Shown one piece after another: positions 3,756-64,000 of a stretch of DNA of 64,000 nt. Positions within the stretch are counted from its first letter, which is position 1; every line of letters begins with the position of its first letter. Below the pieces are notes generated by a model. It was not told where the DNA came from. It saw only the letters and a program-made list of their open reading frames with translations, and made no database searches. A program made the position numbers and the translations under genes. The stretch comes from Syntrophaceae bacterium (GTDB taxonomy: Bacteria > Desulfobacterota > Syntrophia > Syntrophales > Smithellaceae): assembly GCA_003142535.1 (NCBI GenBank), contig PLMQ01000068.1:95000-158999 (forward strand), in the 5' to 3' direction.

Positions 3756-3860
3756 CGGCTACCTTTGTTAGCAGCGTCGTCGGCTTCCTCAACGTATCAG
3801 TAAATATGCCTGCGGAGCCTCCTCCTTGCCGCCTCGGTATCCTGATGAAATCGGCATGGT
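3756..3860. repeat. Dispersed ~105-nt repeat (family B2), copy 1, just upstream of ileS
   Basis: It aligns almost end to end with 42416-42519 (CGGCTAnCTTTrTTrGCwGCGTCGTCGGCwTCCTCAACGTAT...GCCGCCTCGkTATCCT..GAAATCG..ATGGT). Confidence 0.75.
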
Positions 3861-16793: not shown

Positions 16794-17034
16794 GGTATGA
16801 ATCCCAAAACGCGCTTTGGGATTCATACCCTCCGCTGCGCGGGATAATTCGACCAGCAAACTTCAGCGTACTTTGTTTCTGAAGTTTGGGTCTCATTACA
16901 ACTTATCAATTCCGACTTGTGACCTTTAGGTTATACGTTTCACTTTCGGAATTGGAGTTTCACGACCACCGCTTACGCGGGATTGTTCAACATACCAATT
17001 TCCCTACACTTCGTTATGGAAATTGGAGTTTCAC
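16794..17034 (-). repeat. Modular multi-hairpin repeat (family A), two tandem units, minus orientation
   Basis: The reverse complement reads GTGAAAC-TCCAATTTCC..GGAAATTGG-TAT-GTTGAACAATCCCGC..GCGG, then a full unit with hp1, GTTGTAATGAGAC-hp2, GTCGAATTATC and the GGGTATGAATCCCAAAGC...TTGGGATTCATACC hairpin. Confidence 0.85.
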
Positions 17035-17059
17035 GAATAAATTATTTGGGAGATACCAA

Positions 17060-19113: not shown

Positions 19114-19141
19114 ATGCACCCATAAAGGTGCATTTTTTTTA
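19114..19141 (+). terminator. Intrinsic terminator
   Basis: Stem ATGCACC / GGTGCAT followed by a run of 8 T. Confidence 0.7.
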
Positions 19142-19144
19142 TTC

Positions 19145-19299
19145 GTGAAACTCCAATTCTGCAAGCGAAGCGCAGCGGAAGTGGCAAGTTGAATCCACTT
19201 GTAGTGGACTACGCAATGCCGCATAGCGGGAGGTATCAACCACAAAGCTCGCTTAGGAATCAGTTTCCAAAGCTTACTTTGGGGTTGATATCCGTGATC
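19145..19299 (+). repeat. Modular multi-hairpin repeat (family A), divergent copy
   Basis: Layout: GTGAAAC-TCCAATTCTGC aagcgaagc GCAGCGGAAGTGG-CAA-GTTGAAT-..CCGCataGCGG-GAG-GTATCAA..CTTTGGGGTTGATATCC-GTGATC. Confidence 0.75.
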
Positions 19300-20966: not shown

Positions 20967-20985
20967 AATTTAATTGGATTTATTC

Positions 20986-21209
20986 GTGAAACTCCAATTC
21001 CGAAAGCGCACGCATAACCTAAAGGTTACAGGTCGGAATTGGTAAGTTGAACAATCCCGCAAAGCAGAAGGTAATGAGACTCAAACTTCAAAAGCGAAGC
21101 GAAAAGAAGTTTGTTAGTCGAATTATCTCGCATAAGTAGGGATATAATCTCTCGCAGCTTGATGCGGAATCGGTTTCCAAAGCTTGCTTTGGAATTGGCA
21201 TCCGTGATT
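20986..21209 (+). repeat. Modular multi-hairpin repeat (family A), rearranged module order
   Basis: hp1 is TCCAATTCCGA...TCGGAATTGG. It is followed by GTTGAACAATCCCGC, then GTAATGAGAC-hp2 (TCAAACTTCA...GAAGTTTG), GTCGAATTATC, and ends ...TTTCCAAAGCttgCTTTGGAATTGGCATCC-GTGATT. It abuts the ppsA stop. Confidence 0.8.
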
Positions 21210-40440: not shown

Positions 40441-41463
40441 ATGGAAAAACGGTTGATCAAGAAAGATGCGCTGGTGGGTATTGCCAAAAAGATGGCGGAG
40501 GAATTGACGGTTTGGGCTCCGGTGAAAAAAGAAGATAACGTGCTTTTCACGCCGCTCACCAAGGATGCGGAGCCTTTTTTCGCATATCTGAATTCCAAAA
40601 ACGCGCCCAAGCAGGTATTCTTTCCGCATACGGAAACGCTCATGAAATACACCCGCACACCAAAGGGAATGGTTTTTTCGGCGGAAGAAAATAAGGCGGG
40701 AAAAACGGTTCTTTTCGGCGTCCGTCCCTGTGACGCGCACAGCTTTGTTCTGCTGGATATGCTTTTTGATCAGGAAAAGTATAAGGATCAATACTACATC
40801 ACCAAAAGAAACAATACCACAGTCATTACTCTGGCCTGTGCCGAGCCTCCTTATGCTACCTGTTTTTGTACATCGGTTGATGGCGAGCCCGTTTCGGCAG
40901 ATGGAGCGGATATAGTTCTGACAGATATCGGTAGTGAATATCTGGCGGAATTTATTACACCCAAAGGTGAAAAACTGGCCAAATATTTTGGCGAGACTAA
41001 AGCCGATGCCGTGGCCGAAACAAAGAAAAAGGAAATTGCCGAAAAAGCAAAGAAAGCAATCAAATCCAAAATACCGGCACATGAAGTAAAACCGATTCTG
41101 GATAATAACTTTGAGCATCCCTTCTGGGCGACAATCCACGGCAAATGCCTCGCCTGCGGCACTTGCACCTATATGTGCCCGACCTGCCATTGCTTTGATA
41201 TCAGCGATGAAGCTAAAGCAAGCGACGGCGTGCGGATTCGTTCTTGGGATTCCTGCATGTTTCCGCTTTTCACCAAGGAAACGTCGGGCCACAATCCGCG
41301 GATATCGCAAAAAGAAAGATGGCGCCAGCGCGTCATGCACAAATTCAAGTATTATGTGGATAATTTCAATGCCATCGCCTGCGTAGGTTGCGGCCGCTGT
41401 GTCATGTCCTGTCCCGTTAATATAGATATTAGAAAAATTATTGAAGATATTTCAAAATTATAA
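40441..41463 (+). CDS. 4Fe-4S subunit, FlxB / sulfhydrogenase-beta / AsrA-like
   Basis: 340 aa. Motifs: CLACGTCTYMCPTCHCFD and CVGCGRCVMSCP. Paralog of 52456..53505. Confidence 0.65.
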   Translation: MEKRLIKKDALVGIAKKMAEELTVWAPVKKEDNVLFTPLTKDAEPFFAYLNSKNAPKQVFFPHTETLMKYTRTPKGMVFSAEENKAGKTVLFGVRPCDAHSFVLLDMLFDQEKYKDQYYITKRNNTTVITLACAEPPYATCFCTSVDGEPVSADGADIVLTDIGSEYLAEFITPKGEKLAKYFGETKADAVAETKKKEIAEKAKKAIKSKIPAHEVKPILDNNFEHPFWATIHGKCLACGTCTYMCPTCHCFDISDEAKASDGVRIRSWDSCMFPLFTKETSGHNPRISQKERWRQRVMHKFKYYVDNFNAIACVGCGRCVMSCPVNIDIRKIIEDISKL

Positions 41464-42317
41464 TGATGGAGTCAGTAATGCAAAATCCTTATATACCGTA
41501 TCCCGTTGAGGTCACCAAAATAATCACGGAAGTAGACACGAAAGATATCAAGACTTTCCGTTTAAAATTCGTAAATCCGGAAGACGAAGAAAAATTCAAG
41601 TATATTCCCGGCCAGTTCGGCGAGCTTTCCATTTACGGCAAGGGTGAATCTCCAATCGGTATAGCGTCATCACCCACTCAGAGGGGCTATATTGAATTTA
41701 CAGTACAGAAAGCCGGCGTTGTGACATCCGCTTTGCACGAAATGGAAGAAGGAACCCTGATGGGTGTCCGCGGCCCGATGGGCAATTCCTGGCCGATTAA
41801 GTTTCTGGAAGGAAAGAATATTGTCATTGTCGGCGGCGGTTTTGCTTTTACGACTTTGCGTTCTTTGATCAACTACATGATTCATGAGAATAACCGCAAG
41901 CGCTTCGGCAAAATAACCGTAATTTACGGTGCCAGAAATCCCGGTTTGCTGATTTATAAAGACGAACTTATCGAATGGCAAAAAAGAGACGACCTGAACA
42001 TAAATGTCACCGTGGATAAAGGTGATGCAACGTGGAAGGGTAGGGAAGGTTTTGTTCCGACAGTTTGCAAGGAAGTTGCACCGAGTGCGGAAAATGCAGT
42101 TACAGTTATCTGTGGCCCGCCGATCATGATTCGCTTTACACTGCCGGTCTTTTTTGATTTGGGCTTCAAGAAAGAAAACATCATCACTTCGCTGGAAATG
42201 CGCATGAAGTGCGGCATCGGCAAATGCGGCCGCTGCAACGTCGGCAGTAAGTATGTCTGCAAAGATGGACCGGTGTTTTCGCTGGCGGAGCTTGATAAAC
42301 TAACCAAAGAATACTAA
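41463..42317 (+). CDS. FAD/NAD(P)-binding oxidoreductase with C-terminal 2Fe-2S site, FlxA / sulfhydrogenase-gamma / AsrB-like
   Basis: 284 aa with a TAATG overlap onto the upstream gene. Motifs: PGQFGELS, VGGGFAFTTLRSL, CGIGKCGRCNVG. Paralog of 53688..54551. Confidence 0.75.
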   Translation: MMESVMQNPYIPYPVEVTKIITEVDTKDIKTFRLKFVNPEDEEKFKYIPGQFGELSIYGKGESPIGIASSPTQRGYIEFTVQKAGVVTSALHEMEEGTLMGVRGPMGNSWPIKFLEGKNIVIVGGGFAFTTLRSLINYMIHENNRKRFGKITVIYGARNPGLLIYKDELIEWQKRDDLNINVTVDKGDATWKGREGFVPTVCKEVAPSAENAVTVICGPPIMIRFTLPVFFDLGFKKENIITSLEMRMKCGIGKCGRCNVGSKYVCKDGPVFSLAELDKLTKEY

Positions 42318-42415
42318 TACCATTCCGCTTGTAATTGCCTTTGTAAGCGGCAATTACCGGCAAGGAAAGAGTTTTATTTATCGATGCGCTCCCTATGGGA
42401 TGCGCACCCGGTCAT

Positions 42416-42519
42416 CGGCTAACTTTATTGGCTGCGTCGTCGGCATCCTCAACGTATTGTAACATACGTCTGCGGTGCCTCCTTCTGGCCGCCTCGTTAT
42501 CCTTTGAAATCGAAATGGT
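42416..42519. repeat. Dispersed ~105-nt repeat (family B2), copy 2
   Basis: It aligns with 3756-3860 and contains a perfect hairpin ACGTATtgtaacATACGT. Confidence 0.75.
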
Positions 42520-42570
42520 ATTTAAATCGTAAGAAATACCCTATCGTTCAATTACTACAAAAAAGAATCA

Positions 42571-42762
42571 TTAAGTCCGGTTTCTTTCTTTCAAAACCCA
42601 GATCGCCAGAAGGGCTAAGACCAGAGCGGCAAGGGCACTGGGCCAGACGGGAATATCAAATCCTGCCGCAACTATCTTTACCCCCAAAATAAAGCGGCAT
42701 AATTGAGCGACAGCCAAGAAAATAAAGAAAATACCTGCTACTAATGATGCGGGTCGTTTCAT
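42571..42762 (-). CDS. Small two-TM membrane protein
   Basis: I place the start at ATG 42762 (MKRPASLVAGIFFIF...) with an AGGAGG RBS 6 nt upstream. The longer ORF start at 42816 lies inside repeat family C. Confidence 0.5.
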   Translation of the reverse strand: MKRPASLVAGIFFIFLAVAQLCRFILGVKIVAAGFDIPVWPSALAALVLALLAIWVLKERNRT

Positions 42763-42811
42763 AATGAACCTCCTGAAAAGATATTTACTGCTGTTATAAT
42801 TTTCCTCATTT

Positions 42812-42875
42812 GTCATTGCCGGACTTGACTTGTGCCCTTTAGGGTATTAGGTGATCAGGTTATCCGGCAATCCAG
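42812..42875. repeat. Palindromic repeat family C, partial/divergent copy
   Basis: The sequence is GTCATTGCCGGAC...TGTGCCCTTTAGGGTA...ATCCGGCAATCCAG. It shares the TGTGCCCTTTAGGGTA core with 53513-53628. Confidence 0.6.
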
Positions 42876-42889
42876 GAAACAAATAGAAC

Positions 42890-43240
42890 TTATCTTCCGG
42901 GGACGACAATGCGGGATGATTCCTGCCGCTGCATTTCCTTGGCCTCGGCAATCATCTGCTGAACCGCTTTTTCAATAGCCGCCGGTAATTTTTCCGCTGC
43001 CTCACTGAGATTCTTTGCCCCTTCGATTATGCACTGTAGAGGAATTGCTCCATTGGGGGTCATAAGCTGGGTTATTCCCGCATAAATGGCCTCCCGGCTC
43101 TCGTCAACCGAGCAGTCAACCTTGATGGGTGTAAGGCGCCGGATTGTGGCAGAAGAAAGATCCGTAAACGACTCTTCCCTGTAAAGATTATTGGGATTTA
43201 TTTTGATATCAGTTATTTTAGTTTCATTAGCGCCGCTCAT
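42890..43240 (-). CDS. Conserved-looking cytoplasmic hypothetical protein
   Basis: 116-aa ORF with coding-like composition. I recognise no motif. Confidence 0.45.
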   Translation of the reverse strand: MSGANETKITDIKINPNNLYREESFTDLSSATIRRLTPIKVDCSVDESREAIYAGITQLMTPNGAIPLQCIIEGAKNLSEAAEKLPAAIEKAVQQMIAEAKEMQRQESSRIVVPGR

Positions 43241-43443
43241 TGTTTGCTCCTTTATACGGAATGAATTCTTAACCTAAATACACTGGAAAGTTTGTCTGGT
43301 CAAATAATTAGTTTATGGGTTATTTTTTTAGTGGCAAATGTTAAGGATAAAGATTCGACCCCGATTGTTTCCGCGTAAGAGGCAAGGTCTGCCGCGTTAC
43401 CAGTAATGGTGTAATAAAATACGCTTTGGCCTGAAAGTATTGA

Positions 43444-43680
43444 TTACAATAATGTCTTGTCAATATTACCCGGGCCGCCGCATTCCGGCGTGTAGCAGGA
43501 AACGTTTCTGAATTCACATTTTCGAAAGCAGGATGGACATTGTTCCGGAATGTCTTCAGCTTTCAGAATGTAGCCGCATTCCCTGCATTTCCAGAACGTC
43601 TGCCCGCAGGAAGGACATTTGTCCTCGTCAAAAGCCGTTTCGGATTTGTACCCGCAGATTGCACATTCTTTAACAGCCAT
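43444..43680 (-). CDS. Rubredoxin-like / zinc-ribbon protein
   Basis: I place the start at ATG 43680 (AAGGAG RBS 8 nt upstream). Four CxxC pairs are present: CAICG, CPSCG, CRECG, CPSC. Confidence 0.6.
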   Translation of the reverse strand: MAVKECAICGYKSETAFDEDKCPSCGQTFWKCRECGYILKAEDIPEQCPSCFRKCEFRNVSCYTPECGGPGNIDKTLL

Positions 43681-43766
43681 ATCAAGGTCTCCTTTACATT
43701 CGTCATTCTGCCATTTAGGGTAAGTCAAGCAATTTTAATTGTCGGAAAGCCGCTTCTGGTAAGGCT

Positions 43767-43807
43767 TTCCGAAGACTAACAAATTAAATACAGCCATCCC
43801 GGATATT
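43767..43807. repeat. 41-nt direct repeat, copy 1 (pairs with 45507-45547)
   Basis: Copy 1 reads TTCCGAAGACTAACAAATTAAATACAGCCATCCCGGATATT. Copy 2 reads TTCCGAAGACTAATAAATTAATTAGAATTGTCCCCGATATT. About 34 of 41 positions are identical. Confidence 0.65.
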
Positions 43808-43822
43808 TTTCGAAAGAATAAT

Positions 43823-45247
43823 TTACTCCTGTTTTATTTTTCTGATTGCCGGGGGATTCCATCTTCCATCAAGCGCTTCTGCTTTGGGCGAATACAAGCG
43901 CATAGTGACTGCAAAGCGGCCCTGCGCGGGCGCTGGAAGCCAGTTCGATTCCTTGTCGGCTCCCGGCGATTCGTTCTGCAGGTAAATATCCAGCGAACCA
44001 TCGGCGTTGAATTTCAAATTATTGTAATTGCCGATAGCGAAACGGTCGAGCGGGTTTCCAACCTGGAACCTCTCCGCATCATACATGGTTATCGACCAAA
44101 AGGCTTCTACAGGCGGCAGTTCATCCTTAGTAAAATGCATAACATACTTGCTCACTCCCTCCAGCGGCTTGCCGTCAGCGTCGGCTGCACTATTCGGGTA
44201 GATGGCATCTTCCGGCTGGTTCGCCCCCAGTCCGCCCATAGCGATAATAGCGCGTTTGAGGTAGCTGTTGCCATACACACCCATCGTGTCGGTGCTCATC
44301 TGCCAGCCGTTGACGACCCGTTCAAGCGTAAGCCCTTTCTGCTTCATTAACTTGAGCCCATCCGCAACGGCGCGCTCAAGCCCTGCCTTGACTTCGGGAG
44401 GCGTTTTATTAATATCGAAGCTTTTGCCGGGTTCGATGCCAATGCGCTTCAGACGTTCAATCTGAGACCAGTCGGTAATGTGCGGAGGAGTCACTTTCAT
44501 CAGTTCGGCTGCATAGCTGAAGTACCTGGCGGCCGGCATGGTGTTTACCTGCATAAGCGGCGGCGTTTTCATATCAACATTAGGATTGGCAATGAACTTG
44601 GCCGGCTGGGCTTTCTTGCCCCATTGGGATAGCGGCGTAACCTTATAGCCGGCCTGAATCTTGTGCACTGCCTCATAATCACCGGTACCGTTAGTTTGAG
44701 TCCGACCGATGATCCAGACATAGGAAGTGGGCGACTCGATACGCTCAATCCCTTTGGGCAGTTTACCTCTCCATCCCGGACGCACCACTGCAAAACTGGC
44801 TGCCTTTGTTCCACTGGTTCTCTTTCCGGGGGCAGCAAAGACATCCGTCCACATGTCCAGCATCTCCAGCAGGTAATAGCGTCCGTTGGTATCAGGAGCG
44901 GAAATAATCATAGGCTCCGAGGTCAGATCAAGCCATGCCGATGAATAGAGTGCATCGAAACAGGGACTAACTACAGTGTGAAATTTTGCCGGTGGAAAGG
45001 TCGGGGCATTGATGAAAGTATTAATCGGCCCAAATCCTGGTTTTGCTCCCGCCGGCAAATTGGTTATTACCTGCCGCGTTATGTCCATAGAGATGAGTGG
45101 ATAGAAATAATAGTAAGCCTCAATACCAATCTCGTATGCCTCTTTCTCCGTAATCTCCGTCGCTGATAGGTTGCCCGGAGTTGTTATAATCAACAATAAT
45201 GACGACAATGTTACGGCAAGAGCAATAATTTTGTCTTTCACCTTCAT
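43823..45247 (-). CDS. DUF1254/DUF1214 domain-containing exported protein
   Basis: 474 aa with a signal peptide. N-terminal pattern EAYYYFYPLISMD; C-terminal pattern FWSITMYD...DGSLDIYLQ...NWLPAP...RLYSPK. Confidence 0.75.
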   Translation of the reverse strand: MKVKDKIIALAVTLSSLLLIITTPGNLSATEITEKEAYEIGIEAYYYFYPLISMDITRQVITNLPAGAKPGFGPINTFINAPTFPPAKFHTVVSPCFDALYSSAWLDLTSEPMIISAPDTNGRYYLLEMLDMWTDVFAAPGKRTSGTKAASFAVVRPGWRGKLPKGIERIESPTSYVWIIGRTQTNGTGDYEAVHKIQAGYKVTPLSQWGKKAQPAKFIANPNVDMKTPPLMQVNTMPAARYFSYAAELMKVTPPHITDWSQIERLKRIGIEPGKSFDINKTPPEVKAGLERAVADGLKLMKQKGLTLERVVNGWQMSTDTMGVYGNSYLKRAIIAMGGLGANQPEDAIYPNSAADADGKPLEGVSKYVMHFTKDELPPVEAFWSITMYDAERFQVGNPLDRFAIGNYNNLKFNADGSLDIYLQNESPGADKESNWLPAPAQGRFAVTMRLYSPKAEALDGRWNPPAIRKIKQE

Positions 45248-45277
45248 AAATTACACCTCCCATTATTGATATTTATT

Positions 45278-45461
45278 GTGAAACTCCAATTTCGCGAACG
45301 AAGCGAAGCGAAATTGGCAAGTTGTAATGAGACCCAAACTTCAGAAACAAAGTGCGCTGAAGTTTGCAGGTCGAATTATCCTAGGCAAAGCCTAGGGAAC
45401 AATCCCACGTAGCGGAGGGTATAATACCCCGCAGCTTGCTTTGGGGTTCATACCCGTGGTT
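45278..45461 (+). repeat. Modular multi-hairpin repeat (family A), full-length copy
   Basis: Layout: GTGAAAC-TCCAATTTCGC..GCGAAATTGG-CAA-GTTGTAATGAGAC-CCAAACTTCAG..CTGAAGTTTG-CAG-GTCGAATTATC-CTAGGCaaaGCCTAGG-GAACAATCCC..GCGG-AG-GGTATAATACCCC..CTTTGGGGTTCATACCC-GTGGTT. Confidence 0.85.
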
Positions 45462-45506
45462 GAAAAATATTGGTTGAAACGCCGCAGCGCCATATCTGAT
45501 AATGCA

Positions 45507-45547
45507 TTCCGAAGACTAATAAATTAATTAGAATTGTCCCCGATATT
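45507..45547. repeat. 41-nt direct repeat, copy 2
   Basis: See 43767-43807. It lies immediately 3' of the DUF4276 gene stop. Confidence 0.65.
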
Positions 45548-45553
45548 CCTCTT

Positions 45554-46120
45554 CTAAAAATGTGTTTCTATAAAATTACGAAAAGGAACAAAAGACGGGC
45601 AACGCTTCGTTACCTTTTCGATCGAAAGTTTCTTGGCAATTTTTTCGTTGTGTTTAGTATTCATGTAAATTCTTTCACCTTTAGAGCAGATGCGTATCAA
45701 TTCGCCAAGATGTTCTTTGGGCGAGTTAATTGTTTCGGGAAATCCTTTAATATTGGGTTTCTGATTCAGATTCATTGCGCTTTTTATAGCATCTGGATCA
45801 CTTAGAAGCCAAGCTTCAAATTCTTGTACTGGTATACAGATTAAATAATTTGCGATAGCACACGGATCTAAAGCTGCCTGGATCTTTATATGTAACTCAT
45901 TGAGAATATGTGAATCGCGATCGTGAATAACAACCAAAGCAGAGCATCCCTTCTGCTTTAGTTGATTTGCCCACGCATTGCATTTACGCTTGATTTTCCC
46001 ACATCCTTTACCAACAAATTTTTTTATTCCTATTTGTTCATTATTTGCAATCCTATGGATTAATACCTTGGCGGATTCCACATCAGAATCATCCTCGGCG
46101 ATTATTCCTATCTTACTCAT
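45554..46120 (-). CDS. DUF4276-like (TOPRIM-like) protein, partner of the upstream ABC ATPase
   Basis: I place the start at ATG 46120 (MSKIGIIAEDDSDVES...) with a GGGAGG RBS. It overlaps the ATPase stop by 8 nt (ATGAGTAA). Acidic motifs occur in TOPRIM order: IIAEDDSD, VVIHDRD, PVQEFEAWLL. The family name is from memory. Confidence 0.7.
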   Translation of the reverse strand: MSKIGIIAEDDSDVESAKVLIHRIANNEQIGIKKFVGKGCGKIKRKCNAWANQLKQKGCSALVVIHDRDSHILNELHIKIQAALDPCAIANYLICIPVQEFEAWLLSDPDAIKSAMNLNQKPNIKGFPETINSPKEHLGELIRICSKGERIYMNTKHNEKIAKKLSIEKVTKRCPSFVPFRNFIETHF

Positions 46121-47357
46121 TATCAAGGCCTCCCTCTCTCCAGTATTCGCCAAGATTTCCTGATTCCTCAAGATATCCGCGCAGCACTTTGTAATCATTC
46201 TTACTCATAGATTTGCTCAATTGTGTTGCTATTGTGCCTTTATTGGGCTGACGTTTAACTAAAACAAGATTTTCTGGATCCAAATGATCAAGAACGAAAT
46301 CGGAGTGCGTACTAATTACAATCTGTTTCTGTTTTGATTGAGACTTGATTAAAGAAATAATGCTACTTAACAAGCCATGATGAATACATACTTCTGGTTC
46401 TTCAATCAGCAATAATTTACTTTCGTCTGTTAAAATATAAAAAAGCAATGCTAATGTTTTAAAAGTACCTTCAGAAAGTTGATTTGGTGACAACTGGCTA
46501 CCATCAACAGAAAAGCTTGGAACAATAAGCTGTCTATTTCTTTCAATCTTCGTTATTTTACCGCCTGATTGAACATTATAGGAACTTGACGGCATGTTAA
46601 CTTCATTAAATGAAATGTCATCAATAAGTCCTATCCCCTCCTTATTAACAGTGCTTAGATAACGTTTATACTGTTTATCTTTTGCTTTATAAGACTTATA
46701 CAAATCTAAGATAAATTGGTCATGGCCTGCAAAAGAACGAGGCCTTCTCAACGGTCTATTTTCTTCTAGTTCTATAGATACTGGACTTCTTGATGGATCT
46801 GAAAATTGGCTTGCGCTGTAATAACTTATTCCATTAAAGAAGAGGGCTATGTCAGTTAGAATTTGATGCTCATTATCTGACAACAATGGTCTCGATCTTC
46901 GTTTAAGATAAAACCATCTTTCTCGCATGATTCTTCTATAATCTGAGTCAGATTGATCTCCCACATATTTAAATTGTTCATGATATGTGATAAATTCTAT
47001 TGGAATATTTATCCATTTTGATTTTTCAGGAAATTTCCATTTAACATTTGAGAATTGGACATCATCATTATTTCGTTCATCAGTTTCAAAATAAATTATC
47101 CCATCCATAAATATCGATTTTGTTGAATCCACAAGCTCTGCTCTAATTTTACAATGATTATATGAAGCTTCATCCATGTGGTGCGGGAGAGAAGAAGATC
47201 TAGCGCGCCAAATTTTTCGCAGAAGTAGAATAGCGTTTAATATATTGCTTTTACCAGCGCCATTTATACCTATGAGACCAGTCAATTCATTTTGTAATGG
47301 AAAGACAGTTTTAATGCATGAACGATAAGTTTGAATTTTTAGAGATTTAAGTTTCAT
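46113..47357 (-). CDS. ABC-type (AAA_21/AAA_15, OLD/RecF-like) ATPase
   Basis: 414 aa with an AAGGAG RBS. Walker A is GINGAGKSN. An ~250-aa insert is followed by an ABC-signature-like LSEGTFKTLAL, a Walker B LLLIEEPE and an H-loop VISTHS. Confidence 0.85.
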   Translation of the reverse strand: MKLKSLKIQTYRSCIKTVFPLQNELTGLIGINGAGKSNILNAILLLRKIWRARSSSLPHHMDEASYNHCKIRAELVDSTKSIFMDGIIYFETDERNNDDVQFSNVKWKFPEKSKWINIPIEFITYHEQFKYVGDQSDSDYRRIMRERWFYLKRRSRPLLSDNEHQILTDIALFFNGISYYSASQFSDPSRSPVSIELEENRPLRRPRSFAGHDQFILDLYKSYKAKDKQYKRYLSTVNKEGIGLIDDISFNEVNMPSSSYNVQSGGKITKIERNRQLIVPSFSVDGSQLSPNQLSEGTFKTLALLFYILTDESKLLLIEEPEVCIHHGLLSSIISLIKSQSKQKQIVISTHSDFVLDHLDPENLVLVKRQPNKGTIATQLSKSMSKNDYKVLRGYLEESGNLGEYWREGGLDNE

Positions 47358-47787
47358 TAATATTCTCCTTGCTAAGTATACTGTCGATTTATCGGGATAA
47401 TTTTATTTCCAATTATCACTAAATATTACATCACTAATGTTCATATTTTATTTCTTTTCAGTGGCTCACACCTAATACGATGGACTAAGTTGTCAAAAAT
47501 AATACAACTTCTTAGAAACATTGCAAGAAAAACTTAACATTACGATATTTTAGCTTTTTTTGCTTTTTTTAACGAAATCCGGCGACTTGCCCGGAATATC
47601 CGGCATTCGCCGGATGAATTACACTTATTAATACCGGCATCTGCTTAAGCACGCCGGTGATTTTTGAGGTAATTCAATTTGAATTTGCGATTTTAGCTTT
47701 CATGTGTTAGTAAACTGCGCGTTAATCAGATGGCATAAATCCATTAAAAAATCAGTTTATGTTCATCAGGAAGTACAGGAGAAACAA

Positions 47788-48963
47788 ATGTCTATTGCAA
47801 CACCATTTCTGGAAATGTCCCAGGCGATTGTTGATGCCGGCGGCGAGGCGCTGAAAAAATGTTATCAGTGCGGCACCTGCACGGGCACCTGTCCCTGGAC
47901 ACCAATCACCCATTTCAATATCCGCATGCTGGTCAGGATGAGCCAGCTTGGCCTCGAAGGCATCGAAGATAATATGTGGGGCTGTTCCACTTGTAAATTT
48001 TGTGTGGACAGATGCCCCCGGGGCGTGGAAATCATTGATCTGGTGCGGGCTATAAGAAGTGTATATAGCATGGGCGGTATGTTGCCGCAGAGCCTGCGGG
48101 CGTTTGTCGGTAGCATGTCGGCACGGGGCAATCCATGGTCGGGCGATCAGGAAAAAAGAAACGATTGGGCAAAAGGAAAATATCCGCTTTATACAGCCGA
48201 TAAAGAATATCTCAACTGGACATGCTGCACTTCTGCGTTCGATCCCCGCAATGTTCATGTAGCCAAAGCAACGGCGGCGCTGCTGGATGCTGCGGGTTTA
48301 AGCTGGGGGCTGCCGAGTACGGCGGTCAACTGCTGTGGCGAAAGTCTTAGTAAAGTTGGCGATAGTGAGCTCTTTGAAAGGCTCAAGACCAATAATCTGC
48401 AATTCTTTGATAATAACGAAGTTAAAAAGATGATCGTCGCTTCGCCGCACTGTCTGGATACTTTTACCAAGCAATACGGGCGCGACTATAAAGTTATCCA
48501 TTTAAGCGAGCTCTTGGCCGATTTGATTAAAGCCGGAAAGCTGACGCCGAAGAAAGATTTAGGCGGAATAAAAGTTACCTATCATGATCCCTGCTATCTG
48601 GGACGGCACAACCAGGTTTACGATGCACCGCGCGAAGTCCTGCAAGCCATACCGGGAATTGATTTTATCGAGATGGGCAGAAACAGAGAGCAGAGCATGT
48701 GTTGCGGCGGTGGCGGTGGCGGACTATGGATGGAAAAGATGAAAGGCGAACGCCTGAGCGATCTGCGTATTGAAGAAGCGCTCGCGACCGGTGCGACAGT
48801 GTTGGCAACGGCTTGCCCGTATTGCATAACGATGTTTGAAGACAGCGTTCGCACATTGAATGCCGAAGATAAAATTAAGATTAAGGATGTGGCGGAGCTG
48901 TTGCTGGAAAGCTTGGATATTAATGTGGCCGAGCCGGTTGCTGATGTTTGTACCACCAGTTAA
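47788..48963 (+). CDS. HdrD-like Fe-S/CCG-domain protein (fused HdrC+HdrB-type)
   Basis: I place the start at ATG 47788 (AGGAG RBS); the ORF is open from 47704. Motifs: CYQCGTCTGTCP, CSTCKFCVDRCP, then two CCG domains (VNCCGES, SMCCGGGGG, TACPYC). Confidence 0.8.
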   Translation: MSIATPFLEMSQAIVDAGGEALKKCYQCGTCTGTCPWTPITHFNIRMLVRMSQLGLEGIEDNMWGCSTCKFCVDRCPRGVEIIDLVRAIRSVYSMGGMLPQSLRAFVGSMSARGNPWSGDQEKRNDWAKGKYPLYTADKEYLNWTCCTSAFDPRNVHVAKATAALLDAAGLSWGLPSTAVNCCGESLSKVGDSELFERLKTNNLQFFDNNEVKKMIVASPHCLDTFTKQYGRDYKVIHLSELLADLIKAGKLTPKKDLGGIKVTYHDPCYLGRHNQVYDAPREVLQAIPGIDFIEMGRNREQSMCCGGGGGGLWMEKMKGERLSDLRIEEALATGATVLATACPYCITMFEDSVRTLNAEDKIKIKDVAELLLESLDINVAEPVADVCTTS

Positions 48964-52455: not shown

Positions 52456-53505
52456 ATGGCCGCATCCGTATTGAAAAAAGTAGTAATCGAAAAAATAAAT
52501 GAAGTCGCTGCCGTGCTCATGCAAAAGGGGACGCTCATTGCTCCTGTCAAAGAAGAAGCAGGCGCGAATTTCCGCGAAATAAAAGATCCCAAAGATATTT
52601 ATCTCGATTATTACAACAGCATCCTCAGCCCCAAAATGGTTTTCTTTCCCCAAATGGAAGATTTCGTTAAATATCAACTGGCCAAGCCGAAAGCAGATGC
52701 CAAAATTGTCGAGATGAATTTAAAGCCCGCCTTTTTATTCGGCGTGCGCCCCTGCGACGTAAAAAGCTTTGAGATTCTGGACAAACATTTTTATGCTTCG
52801 GGCATTATCGATACCTACTGGAAAGCCAGACGTGATAACACAACAATCATTGGTTATGCTTTTGATTTGGATAAGCCGGTCGATTCCGCAGATTTCTACA
52901 ACACGCTGGGCATCGGTGCCGCTGATCCCGAAGGCAGCGATATCTTCATAGTGAAAAAAGACAAAGAACTGCTGCTCAAAGGAATCACGAAAAAGGGCGA
53001 GGCGCTGCTGGGCGAGCTTTCTATGCTGGAAAAAGCTGACGCCAAAGATGAAAAATATTTCACCGATTATGTGAAGAAGGGCAAAGAAAAGAAAACGCGC
53101 TTCATGAAAGTGGATGATAAGGCTGTTGCGAAAAAATATGAGGATATCTTTGAAAATAATGAATACTGGACAAAGATGTCCGATGCCTGCCTGAGCTGTG
53201 GCGTTTGTACGTTCGTCTGTCCGACCTGCTATTGCTTCGATATTTGCGATGAAACAATCTTTGGTAAGGGAACAAGGCGCCGCATCTGGGATGCCTGTAT
53301 GTTTACGGACTTTACGCTGGAGACGAGCGGCCATAATCCGCGCACCAAGGTATCGCAGAGATTAAGACAGAAGGTCTGCCATAAATATTCATTTTCGGTC
53401 AGAAAGTACGATGTCATTTCCTGTGTCGGTTGCGGACGCTGCACGCGTTCCTGCCCGGTGAATATTGATATATACTCGATGGTGGAAGAAGCGACAAAAT
53501 TATAA
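52456..53505 (+). CDS. 4Fe-4S subunit, FlxB / AsrA-like, paralog of 40441..41463
   Basis: 349 aa. Motifs: CLSCGVCTFVCPTCYCFD and CVGCGRCTRSCP. Confidence 0.65.
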   Translation: MAASVLKKVVIEKINEVAAVLMQKGTLIAPVKEEAGANFREIKDPKDIYLDYYNSILSPKMVFFPQMEDFVKYQLAKPKADAKIVEMNLKPAFLFGVRPCDVKSFEILDKHFYASGIIDTYWKARRDNTTIIGYAFDLDKPVDSADFYNTLGIGAADPEGSDIFIVKKDKELLLKGITKKGEALLGELSMLEKADAKDEKYFTDYVKKGKEKKTRFMKVDDKAVAKKYEDIFENNEYWTKMSDACLSCGVCTFVCPTCYCFDICDETIFGKGTRRRIWDACMFTDFTLETSGHNPRTKVSQRLRQKVCHKYSFSVRKYDVISCVGCGRCTRSCPVNIDIYSMVEEATKL

Positions 53506-53512
53506 TTATGTG

Positions 53513-53628
53513 GTCATTCCGGCGCAGGCCGGCTTTGTGCCCTTTAGGGTAAATCCAGGCGTCGTCCCGACGAAAGTCGGTAACCAATTTTATTATATTA
53601 CTGGATGCCGGATCAAGTCCGGCATGAC
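53513..53628. repeat. Palindromic repeat family C, inserted between flxB-like and flxA-like genes
   Basis: The sequence is GTCATTCCGGCGCAGGCCGG..TGTGCCCTTTAGGGTAAATCCAG...CTGGATGCCGGAtcaagTCCGGCATGAC. Confidence 0.75.
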
Positions 53629-53687
53629 AAATTAGGTTTTTTAAAGTTATAACTGTAAAAAAGCATATATGCAAAAAATAAGGAAAA

Positions 53688-54551
53688 ATGATGATGAGCA
53701 ATAACCCTTACATTCCAATGCCGGTGACCATCACCAAGATAATCAATGAAGTCGATACCAACGATATCAAGACATTCCGGCTGACTTTTCAGAATAAAGA
53801 AGATGAACAAAAATTTAAATACCTGCCCGGACAGTTTGCTGAACTTTCTATTTTCGGCAAGGGCGAATCACCCATTGGTATTGCTTCATCGCCTACGGAA
53901 CCGGGCTATGTGGAATTCACCGTACAAAAAGCGGGAGTAATTGTACCGGGGCTGGTCACCGCAGCGCTGCATGATCTGGAAGAAGGCGCCGAAATCGGTA
54001 TGCGCGGCCCGTTGGGTAAATCATGGCCCATTGAATTTCTGGAAAAGAAGAATATCGTGGTTGTGGGCGGCGGCTTTGCCTTTACAACTTTGCGTTCGCT
54101 CATCAATTACATGCTGCATAAAGACAATCGTAAACGTTTCGGAGAAATTACTGTTGTTTATGGTGCGCGGAATCCCGGCCTGCTTCTTTATAAAAATGAA
54201 CTGGCTGCCTGGGAAAAAAGAGACGATATTAAAACCAATATTACCGTGGATAAGGGGAATGAAAGCTGGAAGGGCAGGGAAGGCTTTGTGCCCAATGTCT
54301 GTAAAGAAGTTGCACCCAGCCCGAAAAATACAGTTGCGGTCATCTGCGGTCCGCCTATCATGATCAAGTTTACACTGCCGGTATTTTACGATTTAAAATT
54401 TGCCAAAGAAAATATTCTAACATCGCTCGAGATGCGGATGAAATGCGGCATCGGCAAATGCGGCCGCTGCAATGTCGGCTTCAAATACGTTTGCAGCGAC
54501 GGCCCGGTTTTTTCCATGGCCGAACTCGAAGAACTGCCACGCGATTTTTAG
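53688..54551 (+). CDS. FAD/NAD(P)-binding oxidoreductase, FlxA / AsrB-like, paralog of 41463..42317
   Basis: 287 aa. Motifs: PGQFAELS, VGGGFAFTTLRSL, CGIGKCGRCNVG. Confidence 0.75.
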   Translation: MMMSNNPYIPMPVTITKIINEVDTNDIKTFRLTFQNKEDEQKFKYLPGQFAELSIFGKGESPIGIASSPTEPGYVEFTVQKAGVIVPGLVTAALHDLEEGAEIGMRGPLGKSWPIEFLEKKNIVVVGGGFAFTTLRSLINYMLHKDNRKRFGEITVVYGARNPGLLLYKNELAAWEKRDDIKTNITVDKGNESWKGREGFVPNVCKEVAPSPKNTVAVICGPPIMIKFTLPVFYDLKFAKENILTSLEMRMKCGIGKCGRCNVGFKYVCSDGPVFSMAELEELPRDF

Positions 54552-55389: not shown

Positions 55390-55980
55390 ATGAGTAAAAT
55401 ATCAGACTTGATTTTTTTCCGCGATAAGCATGTCTGCCCATGGTGGTTATGCTTTACGTTTGATAACATTTTCCGTAATCTGATCCATAATCCGTATAAA
55501 ATCCTGAGTCCGTACATAAAAGTAGGAGATACGATTTTGGATATTGGGCCGGGAATGGGTTATTTTACAATTCCGATGGCGAAGATGACCGGTGCGGAAG
55601 GCCGGGTGATTGCAGCGGATATTCAGGAGAGGATGCTCCTTGCTCTTAAAAGGCGAGCGGAAAACGCTGGTGTAGATAAACGAGTGATTGTGCATTTGAG
55701 TTCTCCCGATTCATTGGCTATAAAAGAGAAAGTAGATTTTATTCTGGCATTTTGGATGGTGCATGAAGTACCGGACAAAAAGCGGTTTTTGAGCGAACTT
55801 TTTTCGGTATTGAAAGATAACGGGGCTTTTCTACTGGCTGAACCGGCTATTCATGTTACAAAAGCTAACTTTGCAGAAACAGTAAATTTAGCCGTGCAAG
55901 CGGGATTCATTATTTGCGCCCAACCTGAAATATTTTTAAGCCGGACTGTTTTATTAGTGAAACAACAATTCGGAAAGTGA
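55390..55980 (+). CDS. Class I SAM-dependent methyltransferase
   Basis: Motif I is ILDIGPGMGYFT. ATG 55390 is chosen; the alternative is TTG 55378. The last 8 codons and the stop are supplied by repeat family A. Confidence 0.75.
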   Translation: MSKISDLIFFRDKHVCPWWLCFTFDNIFRNLIHNPYKILSPYIKVGDTILDIGPGMGYFTIPMAKMTGAEGRVIAADIQERMLLALKRRAENAGVDKRVIVHLSSPDSLAIKEKVDFILAFWMVHEVPDKKRFLSELFSVLKDNGAFLLAEPAIHVTKANFAETVNLAVQAGFIICAQPEIFLSRTVLLVKQQFGK

Positions 55981-56066
55981 AGCGTATCCGAATTGGTAAG
56001 TTGAACTATCCCGCACAGCGGAGGGTATGAACAGCAAAGCTTGATTTGTTGTTCATGCCCGTGGTT
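55957..56066 (+). repeat. Modular multi-hairpin repeat (family A), short form lacking hp2/hp3
   Basis: Layout: GTGAAAC-AACAATTCGGA..TCCGAATTGG-TAA-GTTGAACTATCCCGCacaGCGG-AG-GGTATGAACAGCAAAGC..TGTTGTTCATGCCC-GTGGTT. Confidence 0.8.
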
Positions 56067-57802: not shown

Positions 57803-57973
57803 ATATCTGCGCGAAGCTGCAATCATCCTTATCGAGGTTGATTGCAGCTTCCGTAAAATCTACTGATGTTGAGCTATTATCCGATCTACGTCCAATCTCC
57901 TGCCTTTGAGTATATAGATAATCTTTAAACAATAACACTAAAATGCAAGCCTGCATTTTTCCAGTATTCATTT

Positions 57974-58168
57974 GTGAAACTCCAATTTCCATAACGAAGT
58001 GTGTAACCTAAAGGTCACAAGTGGAAATTGGTAAGTTGTAATGAGACCCAAACTTCAGCCCTGAAGTTTGCAGGTCGAATTATCCCTAAAGCGAAGCTAG
58101 GGGAAACAATCCCGCACAGCGAAGGGTATGATAATCAGCAGCTTACTTTGGGGTTCATACCCGTGATT
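57974..58168 (+). repeat. Modular multi-hairpin repeat (family A), full-length reference copy
   Basis: All five hairpin modules and all conserved linkers are present (see findings). Confidence 0.85.
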
Positions 58169-62702: not shown

Positions 62703-64000
62703 TTATCCATTTTGATTCCTTATTATTCGAATAATTTCCTGCCTTGCAAATTCCTGATTTTCCGATGTGTCCATTACAAAGTAATTTTCAGCGGGGAATT
62801 CTCTGATTTCATCAAAGTCCTTTTTTTGTTCCAGAAATATTTCCCAGCGGCCGTCTGAAGCATTATCTTTTTCCCGCATTCGCGTATCCAGCCGTTTTTT
62901 AACTATTTCTTCACGGCAGGTGCATTCAATTACATAAAAAGGGACCTCAAGGTTACGTGCTAAATTCATCGCCTTTTCGCGTTCGCTGCGTCTTTTGAAA
63001 GATGCGTCAATAATTACAGACTTGCCGTGTTCAATTTGGGAAGATGCCAGTTCGTATGCTTTATCATAGGTACGACGGGAAATATCGTCGGAATAAATTC
63101 CCTGACTGAAATCTTCATAATGCCGGGTCGAAGGCGTGATATTGAGTAGTTCTTTGCGCAGAACGTCAGTGCGAATAATTGCGGCGCCGAATCGTTCAGC
63201 GAAAATCCGCGCCTGATAACTTTTCCCGCTACCCATAAGCCCGGCGGTTAAAATCAAAGCAGGTTTTTCCAGACGTGTCGCGTATGACGTGGCTAGGTCA
63301 AAATAACGTCCGGCAGTGTTGGTAATTAGCTTTCGTTCGCTTGCCGGGATTTCCTTTTGATCAAGACGGAAACTGATTACTTTTCCGCGTACGTAAGCGT
63401 AATAGCAACGATAAAAATTAAGCAGGCTCAGCATTTCGTAATCTCCGGAATACCGGAGATATGCCTGCACAAAAGCATCCGCCTGCCGGGAATAACCATT
63501 GAAATCAAGGTCCATGGTCAAAAACGCTACTTCGGCTGCAGTATCGGCAAAACGGAATCTTTCATTAAATTCTATGCAGTCAAATATTATTATTTCGTCG
63601 GCAACGCATATATGTTCCAAATGTAAATCTCCATGACAATCACGGATTTTGTGGTCGGTTATTCTTTTCTCGAAGAGATTCTTTTTTGTGCTTAGAAATT
63701 TCTCTACATATTCTTTGATGAATTTGTATTGGTATTCGGGAATAGTAGTATTAACATAGTTTAATGTCTGGATGAAGTTTTCCTTATGATTATGGCGGAT
63801 TGTGGCGATACTGCCCATTTCGTCAATCCGGCCGCCCGTTTCCGCAAGCTTGTGAAAAGCGGCGATTTTTCCGGCAATAGCGTCCATTATTTTGTCATCG
63901 GCCTGGCCATTGGCCAGAAGTGTTTTGAGCATTCTATCTTGCGGCAATTTTTTCATTCGTACGGCATATTCGACCACTTTTTCTCCCGCTCCCAGAATAA
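62703..64000 (-). CDS. Bifunctional phosphotransferase-like / P-loop kinase protein, N-terminus beyond right edge
   Basis: The reading frame stays open to position 64000. An APH-like kinase core (HGDLHLEHI, IFDCIEF) is followed by a P-loop kinase domain (GLMGSGKS). Confidence 0.75.
   Translation of the reverse strand, partial: ILGAGEKVVEYAVRMKKLPQDRMLKTLLANGQADDKIMDAIAGKIAAFHKLAETGGRIDEMGSIATIRHNHKENFIQTLNYVNTTIPEYQYKFIKEYVEKFLSTKKNLFEKRITDHKIRDCHGDLHLEHICVADEIIIFDCIEFNERFRFADTAAEVAFLTMDLDFNGYSRQADAFVQAYLRYSGDYEMLSLLNFYRCYYAYVRGKVISFRLDQKEIPASERKLITNTAGRYFDLATSYATRLEKPALILTAGLMGSGKSYQARIFAERFGAAIIRTDVLRKELLNITPSTRHYEDFSQGIYSDDISRRTYDKAYELASSQIEHGKSVIIDASFKRRSEREKAMNLARNLEVPFYVIECTCREEIVKKRLDTRMREKDNASDGRWEIFLEQKKDFDEIREFPAENYFVMDTSENQEFARQEIIRIIRNQNG

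Follow-up and report, generated by a model that had tools for sequence, protein, structure and literature searches.

The gene pair considered here has its closest described relative in HEC-01, the 'Hma-embedded candidate 01' of PADLOC (Payne et al., bioRxiv 10.1101/2024.01.29.577857), in which an ATP-binding cassette (ABC) ATPase, HEC-01A, is followed by HEC-01B, a small TOPRIM-like protein with an OLD-like acidic metal-binding site, and which was found embedded in Hma systems. In some environmental microbiomes, HEC-01 is reported to rank with the most abundant of the candidate systems (PMC12881386). MADS3-4 and AbiL have also been added to the list of systems that combine an ABC ATPase with a TOPRIM protein, and the domains of MAD3-MAD4 include DUF4276 (PMC11464382), a family published as a new TOPRIM member and Mad4 homologue (PMC12065111). 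In PARIS, the TOPRIM protein AriB, a tRNA cleaver, is kept sequestered by AriA (PMC11464382), and OLD has been reported to be a tRNase once activated (10.64898/2026.07.10.737580). Here we describe a pair of this kind, an ABC ATPase gene followed by a DUF4276 gene, in a 64,000-nucleotide stretch of DNA (the window) from a Syntrophaceae bacterium of the Smithellaceae (GenBank assembly GCA_003142535.1, contig PLMQ01000068.1, positions 95,000 to 158,999 of the forward strand). By its profile matches the pair belongs to the catalogued candidate system HEC-01, and it is probably a HEC-01-type conflict module gained by horizontal transfer and, by analogy with its relatives, a TOPRIM nuclease under ATPase control that would act in abortive-infection defence.

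The two genes and the elements that join them are the following (positions are those of the window):

46113-47357, minus strand: HEC-01A-like ABC ATPase gene, 414 aa
45554-46120, minus strand: HEC-01B-like DUF4276/TOPRIM putative nuclease gene, 188 aa, ~21 kDa
46113-46134, minus strand: translational-coupling junction, with the Shine-Dalgarno (SD) sequence GGGAGG at 46129-46134, an 8-nt spacer and ATGAGTAA at 46113-46120
47358-47382, minus strand: 5' leader of the pair with the SD sequence AGGAG (47365-47369), from nucleotide comparison with the nearest relatives
ATPase motif residues: Walker A G30-K36, Q-loop Q184, signature S290-G297, Walker B E319/E320, H-loop H351
Putative catalytic residues of the DUF4276 protein: E9 (46096-46094), D13, D67xD69 (45922-45914), E102 (45817-45815)

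A preliminary description of this DNA, made from the letters alone, had reported a 414-aa ATPase with Walker A GINGAGKSN (K36), the ABC signature-like LSEGTFKTLAL, Walker B LLLIEEPE and the H-loop STHS, followed by a 188-aa gene whose ATG at 46120 overlaps the ATPase stop and which has its own GGGAGG ribosome-binding site. All of these elements were found in the sequence and its open reading frames (ORFs), the signature-like motif being LSPNQLSEGTFKTLAL, as were the acidic motifs IIAEDDSD, HDRD and QEFEAWLL that it had pointed out in the small protein, in which E9 and D67xD69 are invariant. The genes overlap by 8 nt, ATGAGTAA, which contains both the ATG of the DUF4276 gene (46120-46118) and the TAA of the ATPase gene (46115-46113). 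The GGGAGG lies 8 nt 5' of this ATG, and the DUF4276 gene ends with TAG at 45554-45556. A longer alternative ORF for the DUF4276 gene, 214 aa from 46198, also appears in the ORF listing; the start at 46120 is preferred because of the N-termini of the homologues and the family-wide overlap of start and stop. The ATPase and DUF4276 genes are thus a translationally coupled structure.

The same arrangement recurs in the family. At 67 of 77 related loci the start of the DUF4276 gene (gene B) overlapped the stop of the ATPase gene (gene A), by 8 nt in 36, 4 nt in 23, 1 nt in 6 and 11 nt in 2, counts that are biased toward small spacings because the in-frame start nearest the stop was taken. At 59 of the 77 the overlap took one of two forms, ATGAnTAA (8 nt) or ATGA (4 nt). 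The gene-B SD sequence is encoded by the conserved E408-G409-G410 near the ATPase C-terminus, so that coding and regulatory constraint fall on the same bases. Among DUF4276 relatives at 31-87% identity with at least 1250 nt of upstream sequence, an ATPase homologue abutted on the same strand at 57 of 58 loci, and the identities of the A and B proteins to those of the window co-varied (Pearson r = 0.92, n = 47). This shows that the ATPase and DUF4276 genes are near-obligately paired and co-diverging. The neighbours at 19 loci were mostly housekeeping genes, with a few integrase, nSTAND3, TIR and methyltransferase genes, and no third gene recurred among their 144 neighbouring ORFs.

Profile searches placed both proteins with HEC-01, with matches well beyond what chance would give. 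The ATPase matched Pfam AAA_21 (1.6e-23) and AAA_15 (1.2e-18), and several HEC-01A models topped the 138 PADLOC models that matched it (best, PDLC04175, 6.2e-27), ahead of the generic AriA, AbiLi, Old, GajA and mad3 ATPase models of PADLOC-DB. The sole Pfam match of the small protein at E <= 1 was DUF4276 (PF14103; 2.2e-18, 67.6 bits against a gathering threshold of 30.2, profile positions 2-191 of 192). Its best PADLOC model was HEC-01B PDLC04196 (2.8e-16, residues 1-182 against profile positions 1-186 of 197), and HEC-01B models made up 21 of its 24 PADLOC matches. The locus thus has the hidden Markov model (HMM) matches to A and B, the adjacency and the common direction expected of HEC-01. 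It differs from the published setting in that the pair, here from an uncultured Smithellaceae bacterium, is a solitary one within a region of core metabolism, its neighbours being flx-hdr genes and genes for a DUF1254/DUF1214 protein and a rubredoxin-like protein instead of an Hma system. To our knowledge, the PADLOC HEC-01 model does not require Hma embedding.

The other described systems resemble the pair less closely. MAD3-MAD4 of MADS likewise joins an AAA_15/21 ABC ATPase to a DUF4276 TOPRIM protein (PMC11464382, PMC12065111), and the window pair gave weak HMM matches to mad3 (1e-17) and MAD4. However, the NCBIfam equivalog models scored only 62 bits against 420 for MAD3 and 17.5 against 160 for MAD4, no methyltransferase or other mad gene is nearby, and the subfamily is a different one. 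AbiL is also split into an ABC ATPase (AbiLi; PADLOC match 2e-23) and a small TOPRIM protein (AbiLii, RloB-like), and a RloB-like protein was the best viral structural match of the DUF4276 protein, but the latter is Pfam DUF4276 and has no RloB (PF13707) match, so that the resemblance is structural only. PARIS, which serves as our model for mechanism, is again a split pair of an AAA_15/21 ABC ATPase (AriA) and a TOPRIM effector (AriB). AriB, however, is a DUF4435 (PF14491) protein of ~35 kDa whereas the effector here is a DUF4276 protein of ~21 kDa, no AriB model was among the PADLOC matches of the DUF4276 protein, and the AriA match of the ATPase is to a generic AAA_21 profile only. Class 1 OLD proteins (P2 Old, BpOLD, TsOLD) and GajA share the ABC ATPase and a TOPRIM domain with E and DxD, and the OLD TOPRIM region was the top structural match in the PDB, but in these proteins the domains are fused in one polypeptide instead of being encoded by separate, overlapping genes. 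Gabija further adds the GajB helicase, and no helicase lies close to the window pair. Two other candidates were rejected: PD-T4-4, considered as a known DUF4276 system, is in the literature a PD-(D/E)xK nuclease with a P-loop NTPase, and 'Toprim-TA' has another architecture, a Toprim nuclease with a superfamily 2 (SF2) helicase.

The preliminary description had assigned the pair to the split ABC ATPase + TOPRIM class of OLD, PARIS and AbiL, and had predicted AAA_21/AAA_15 and DUF4276 domains, co-conservation of the genes and a variable neighbourhood, proposing PADLOC as a check. The class assignment was right because the Pfam, PADLOC, fold, pairing and neighbourhood checks agreed with the prediction: the three Pfam families were found at the E-values given above, PADLOC called the genes HEC-01A and HEC-01B, the acidic residues were in place, the genes occurred together and co-diverged, the contexts differed between loci, and the pair was absent from 80 syntenic relatives (below). 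Two of its statements have been overtaken. The pairing was thought uncharacterised, but it is already HEC-01 in PADLOC, with MAD3-MAD4 related and DUF4276 published as TOPRIM. Functional validation of the DUF4276 variant was believed to be lacking, but HEC-01 has been tested, once with a negative result (10.1101/2024.01.29.577857) and once with a positive one (PMC12881386).

We examined whether the residues and folds expected of an ATPase-nuclease pair are kept. Across 60 ATPase homologues, G30, N32, G35, K36, Q184, S290-G297, E319, E320 and H351 are invariant or near-invariant. The AlphaFold2 (AF2) model of the ATPase (pLDDT, a prediction of the local distance difference test, 85) matched the Rad50 and PtuA ABC ATPases (E ~1e-12, probability 1.0), and its predicted fold is that of an ABC ATPase; no solved structure of a close ATPase relative was found in the PDB. 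The DUF4276 protein was modelled with a pLDDT of 94.7 and a predicted TM score (pTM) of 0.90, as a core of four beta-alpha units, after which the C-terminal part is helical. In this model E9 comes after strand 3-8 (strand 1) and D67xD69 after strand 61-65 (strand 3), a TOPRIM-type placement. A Foldseek search of 350,542 PDB chains gave as its top match OLD of Burkholderia pseudomallei, in the C-terminal region that contains the TOPRIM domain (6nk8; probability 0.99, E 3e-3), with Thermus OLD also among the matches. Against viral protein models, the best match was the RloB-like protein (probability 1.00, E 8.5e-4, TM 0.57), at ~12% sequence identity. A TOPRIM-like fold agrees with published analyses (10.1101/2024.01.29.577857, PMC12065111). 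In a distant alignment of 46 cluster representatives (28-54% identity) only E9, D13, D67, D69, E102 and W104 were invariant, and by this comparison the putative E/DxD/E catalytic set is the only part conserved family-wide.

The family was surveyed with a DUF4276 profile. Among 1.84 billion cluster representatives it found 2316, 478 and 142 proteins at E <= 1e-3, 1e-10 and 1e-30, respectively, nearly all of them stand-alone proteins of 185-200 aa. One cluster representative (P0367, 448 aa) carries the DUF4276 domain at its N-terminus and may be a fusion variant. A PDB sequence search with the profile gave no meaningful match, and thus no close DUF4276 relative has a solved structure there; an hhalign comparison of the profile with the Toprim domain of the window's own DnaG was uninformative (probability 0.5%). 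In the close subfamily of the DUF4276 protein, C59 and C174 are invariant and C40 nearly so, and C174 is kept at 90% or more in the distant alignment. These cysteines lie outside the TOPRIM acidic site; a disulfide or a metal site of structural importance is a possible role for them.

Base composition and distribution indicate that the pair came from elsewhere. The preliminary description had noted that the two genes are more AT-rich than their surroundings, and indeed GC content is 0.31-0.39 over 45400-47800 and 0.45-0.53 in the flanks. GC at third codon positions (GC3) is 0.25 for the ATPase gene and 0.32 for the DUF4276 gene, whereas in thirteen other window genes it is 0.43-0.57. The source labels of close homologues (50-66% identity) include Nitrososphaeria, Nanoarchaeia, Woesearchaeota, Moranbacteria, Desantisbacteria, Dehalogenimonas, Pelotalea, Desulfobulbaceae, Chryseobacterium and Niabella, a span that takes in archaea, candidate phyla radiation (CPR) bacteria, Bacteroidota, Chloroflexota and Desulfobacterota. 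The contexts inspected are all different, for example housekeeping genes in a peat metagenome-assembled genome (MAG), or a Dam-like methylase close by. The nearest relatives (L179, 83.5% nucleotide identity, and L182, 85%) lie in unrelated contexts, and similarity to them is confined to the stretch from window position 47382 (47371 for L182) down to 45558/45556. By this comparison only the two ORFs and about 25 nt of leader move between hosts, the leader (47358-47382) being the sole non-coding sequence that travels with the pair. The identical protein was seen on 22 contigs, which come from several sources of metagenome data (JGI, ENA, Logan), and no variant without the pair was seen among conspecific contigs with genes for exactly these DUF4276 or DUF1254 proteins. 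Taken together, the pair is a self-contained, horizontally acquired cassette in a Smithellaceae (Smithella-like) chromosome.

Carriage of the pair by phages was considered and rejected, IMG/VR being nearly empty of DUF4276 relatives: such a relative was found on just 4 of its contigs, and the full pair on one. Two further contexts were recorded. In a MAG whose copy of the protein is labelled at NCBI as from a Nitrososphaeria archaeon (L010, 5016-6296), a CAP12-PCTIR_TIR protein adjoins the pair, and in Pelotalea chapellei (L013, 2219-3535 and 8803-9129) a phage-type integrase and an ISL3 transposase fragment do so. In both cases the setting is what carriage on a defence island or genomic island would give.

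The surroundings of the pair in the window are those of a core chromosome, with IleRS, DnaG, RpoD, RNase P RNA, PPDK and two flx-hdr clusters. The pair itself lies in the following segment:

42318-47703: variable insert of 5.4 kb between the core genes flxA_L and HdrD419

All genes of the insert are on the minus strand: hyp116, the rubredoxin-like protein, the DUF1254/DUF1214 protein and the HEC-01 pair. The genes other than the pair have host-like GC and no PADLOC match. A scan of species-representative genomes with the neighbouring HdrD-like protein placed the host in the Smithellaceae (Smithella-like), and 80 related Smithellaceae loci were compared. The distance from flxA_L to HdrD419, 5.4 kb in the window, measures 150-300 bp in some 45 species of the Smithellaceae, and the ATPase, DUF4276 and DUF1254 genes were found at this position in none of the 80 loci. 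Other species hold other cargo at the junction: an HTH (helix-turn-helix) gene, a HEPN_RiboL-PSP + GmrSD_N operon, a nucleotidyltransferase (NTase) pair and AbiEi/AbiEii in L015 (1-9487), MazF and AbiEi/AbiEii in L048 (2097-5431), and an HSDR_N-like protein, an IS3-type transposase and an RNase_H_2 protein in L018 (5705-9941). Because of this varied accessory cargo, the flxA_L|HdrD junction looks like a recurrent hotspot for conflict-type genes between core metabolic operons, and the pair sits in it. Further features of the setting named in the preliminary description were recovered as well: the two metabolic clusters on either side are paralogous (41721-42020 and 53955-54254, 300 nt at 73%); an AT-rich gap, given there as ~430 bp, follows the pair on the right (GC 0.33, 346-430 bp depending on the HdrD start chosen); and on the left a dispersed repeat occupies 45265-45460 and another repeat 45474-45547, the latter with a copy at 43734-43807 and, as a nhmmer module (below), a span of 45467-45551. 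In the flx-hdr clusters (40441-42317 and 52456-54551) the flxA/flxB pairs are duplicated, and both are kept in most Smithellaceae relatives. An Rfam scan gave no match in or near the locus.

How the pair might work can be modelled on its relatives, and from PARIS, OLD and Gabija we infer complex formation, a trigger, a substrate and an abortive outcome. Translational coupling would yield the ABC ATPase and the DUF4276 nuclease in fixed proportion, and the two would form an A-B complex in which the ATPase keeps the metal-dependent nuclease inactive. On sensing a phage-derived trigger, the ATPase would bind or hydrolyse ATP through K36 and E320 and release or activate the nuclease. The latter would then cut tRNA or DNA with E9, D67xD69 and E102, translation or replication would stop, and the infection would be aborted. 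A PARIS-like HEC-01, with a sequestered nuclease that acts as a tRNase on release, is one possibility. The literature searched held no report on the substrate, trigger or mechanism of HEC-01.

Several points weigh against defence by a TOPRIM nuclease. The HEC-01 representative of the discoverers protected E. coli from none of the phages used (10.1101/2024.01.29.577857). A representative from a cold seep did protect E. coli B from at least one of T4, T5 and T7, but this result was given without a fold-change for HEC-01 (PMC12881386). The predicted TOPRIM-like fold is supportive rather than decisive because the structural matches, although top-ranked, are modest (E 3e-3 and 8.5e-4; TM about 0.5-0.57) and no Pfam Toprim model matches the DUF4276 protein. 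No other recognisable defence gene stands beside the pair in the window. The complex and the substrate are proposed by analogy, and the known relatives differ in substrate, PARIS and OLD acting on tRNA and Gabija on DNA.

These points leave room for other explanations, of which a selfish toxin-antitoxin (TA)-like addiction cassette is the main one. The TOPRIM nuclease would be the toxin and the ATPase the antitoxin, and the cassette would persist by post-segregational killing or genomic stabilisation, with no real anti-phage benefit. Coupled translation and the obligate pairing of the genes would suit such a role, the same hotspot is filled in relatives with the TA modules MazF, AbiEi/AbiEii and the NTase pair, some PDB depositors call AriA an 'antitoxin', and the first test of HEC-01 showed no phage protection (10.1101/2024.01.29.577857). 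However, a TA-like role is mechanistically inseparable from abortive infection, PARIS and AbiE being both TA-like and defensive, and it therefore does not part cleanly from the defence model. One HEC-01 representative did protect against phage (PMC12881386), and the pair lies in the chromosome and is fixed in the species (all 17-22 contigs), so that there is no plasmid to stabilise. We regard a purely selfish role as unlikely. Dependence on a larger system (MADS MAD3/MAD4, Hma or restriction-modification), of which the pair would be a detached or accessory part that is inactive alone, is suggested by the discovery of HEC-01 inside Hma systems (10.1101/2024.01.29.577857), by the place of the MAD3/MAD4 pair of ABC ATPase and DUF4276 within multigene MADS (PMC11464382, PMC12065111) and by the weak matches to both MAD models. 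Yet those matches fall far under the equivalog cut-offs, the window's insert contains no methyltransferase, helicase or other mad gene, no partner recurs in the 19 related loci, and the DNA common to different hosts is the two ORFs only; we find this explanation poorly supported and very unlikely.

Two remaining readings are poorly supported too, and extremely unlikely. The weak matches of the ATPase to RecF, Rad50 and SMC models and structures bring to mind a housekeeping accessory of DNA repair or recombination, similar to RecF (ABC ATPase) with RecR, which has a TOPRIM domain, or to Rad50-type complexes. All NCBIfam repair models, however, scored far under their cut-offs on the ATPase (RecF, 33 bits against 172), and a housekeeping role sits badly with the fact that none of the 80 related Smithellaceae loci has the pair at this position, with its foreign composition and with its patchy spread over bacterial phyla and archaea at 50-66% identity. 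That the pair is instead a decaying, non-functional remnant of a past transfer might be read from its low GC, the adjacent repeats and the lack of a mobility gene nearby. Against decay, both ORFs are intact and full length, all family-invariant catalytic residues, the SD sequences and the overlap are preserved, and the identical protein recurs on the 22 contigs from JGI, ENA and Logan. A defensive, ATPase-controlled TOPRIM nuclease thus remains the reading that we prefer.

The locus is a further example of a candidate defence system that is already catalogued, and alone it changes little. At the level of the family, the analysis adds the near-constant pairing, overlap and co-divergence of the two genes, the conserved E/DxD/E residues and a mobile unit of two ORFs, and a representative with defined putative active-site residues is a reasonable target for biochemistry. 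The hotspot, together with the flanking modules that it shares with a relative (below), hints at the swapping of immune cargo among syntrophic Smithellaceae, which could matter for phage pressure in methanogenic peat and hydrocarbon-degrading communities.

These non-coding modules bracket the pair:

47498-47620, minus strand: 5' module, with a promoter-like TTGCAA-16-TATTAT (47526-47499) and a GC-rich palindrome
45467-45551, minus strand: 3' module, directly after the DUF4276 stop; second copy at 43727-43811, after the DUF1254/DUF1214 gene

A nhmmer search located the 5' module only in the window and in L015, the closest relative of the window, where it occurs three times within the defence/TA island, upstream of different cargo; two of the three L015 copies are upstream of minus-strand operons. 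Promoter and terminator scans gave counts not above shuffled expectation, TTGCAA-16-TATTAT included. The 3' module has four copies, two in the window and two in L015, each 0-67 nt past a stop codon, and its predicted fold was not significantly stable in any of them (z-scores -1.0 to +1.1). The module copies in L015 (6087-6188, 7424-7511, 8993-9027, 3308-3386 and 3847-3924) flank cargo different from the HEC-01 pair, and neither module was found elsewhere in the window and the compared loci, or in IMG/VR. An integron/attC reading of the 3' module was rejected: by eye there are no R''/R' boxes (RYYYAAC...GTTRRRY), the fold is not stable, and there are only four copies. No recombinase or integron integrase is among the annotated ORFs of the window.

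The modules may mark a lineage-specific slot for cassette exchange or, alternatively, may be local duplications. A bolder reading, which we consider doubtful, makes the pair the cargo of an undescribed, integrase-less cassette system of the Smithellaceae. A promoter-bearing 5' module (~100-120 nt) and a 3' module (~80 nt) would there bracket unrelated defence/TA cargo in one and the same hotspot, the HEC-01 pair in the window and the GmrSD+HEPN+HTH operon and NTase pair in L015. If this were true, it would imply module-guided exchange of cargo and a 'plug-in' expression slot for immune genes.

Other repeats lie in the window. The dispersed repeat at 45265-45460, between the pair and the DUF1254/DUF1214 gene, belongs to an intergenic family of ~200 nt that resembles miniature inverted-repeat transposable elements (MITE) or repetitive extragenic palindromes (REP), with the core GTGAAACTCCAATT...AATTGGYAAGTTG and no Rfam match. 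Its copies are:

19132-19298, 20973-21208, 45265-45460, 55944-56027 and 57966-58168: dispersed repeat
16934-17036: dispersed repeat, inverted

Short conspecific metagenome contigs end inside this repeat, ~95 nt upstream of the DUF1254/DUF1214 gene. At the far end of the window, a 424-aa ORF (62703-63977, minus strand) has AAA_33 and Zeta_toxin-like kinase domains. An 88-nt repeat with no Rfam match at the gathering threshold occurs upstream of the IleRS gene (3756-3843) and just downstream of flxA_L (42416-42503), the two copies being 82% identical, and the copy downstream of flxA_L is kept in L018, L046 and L052.

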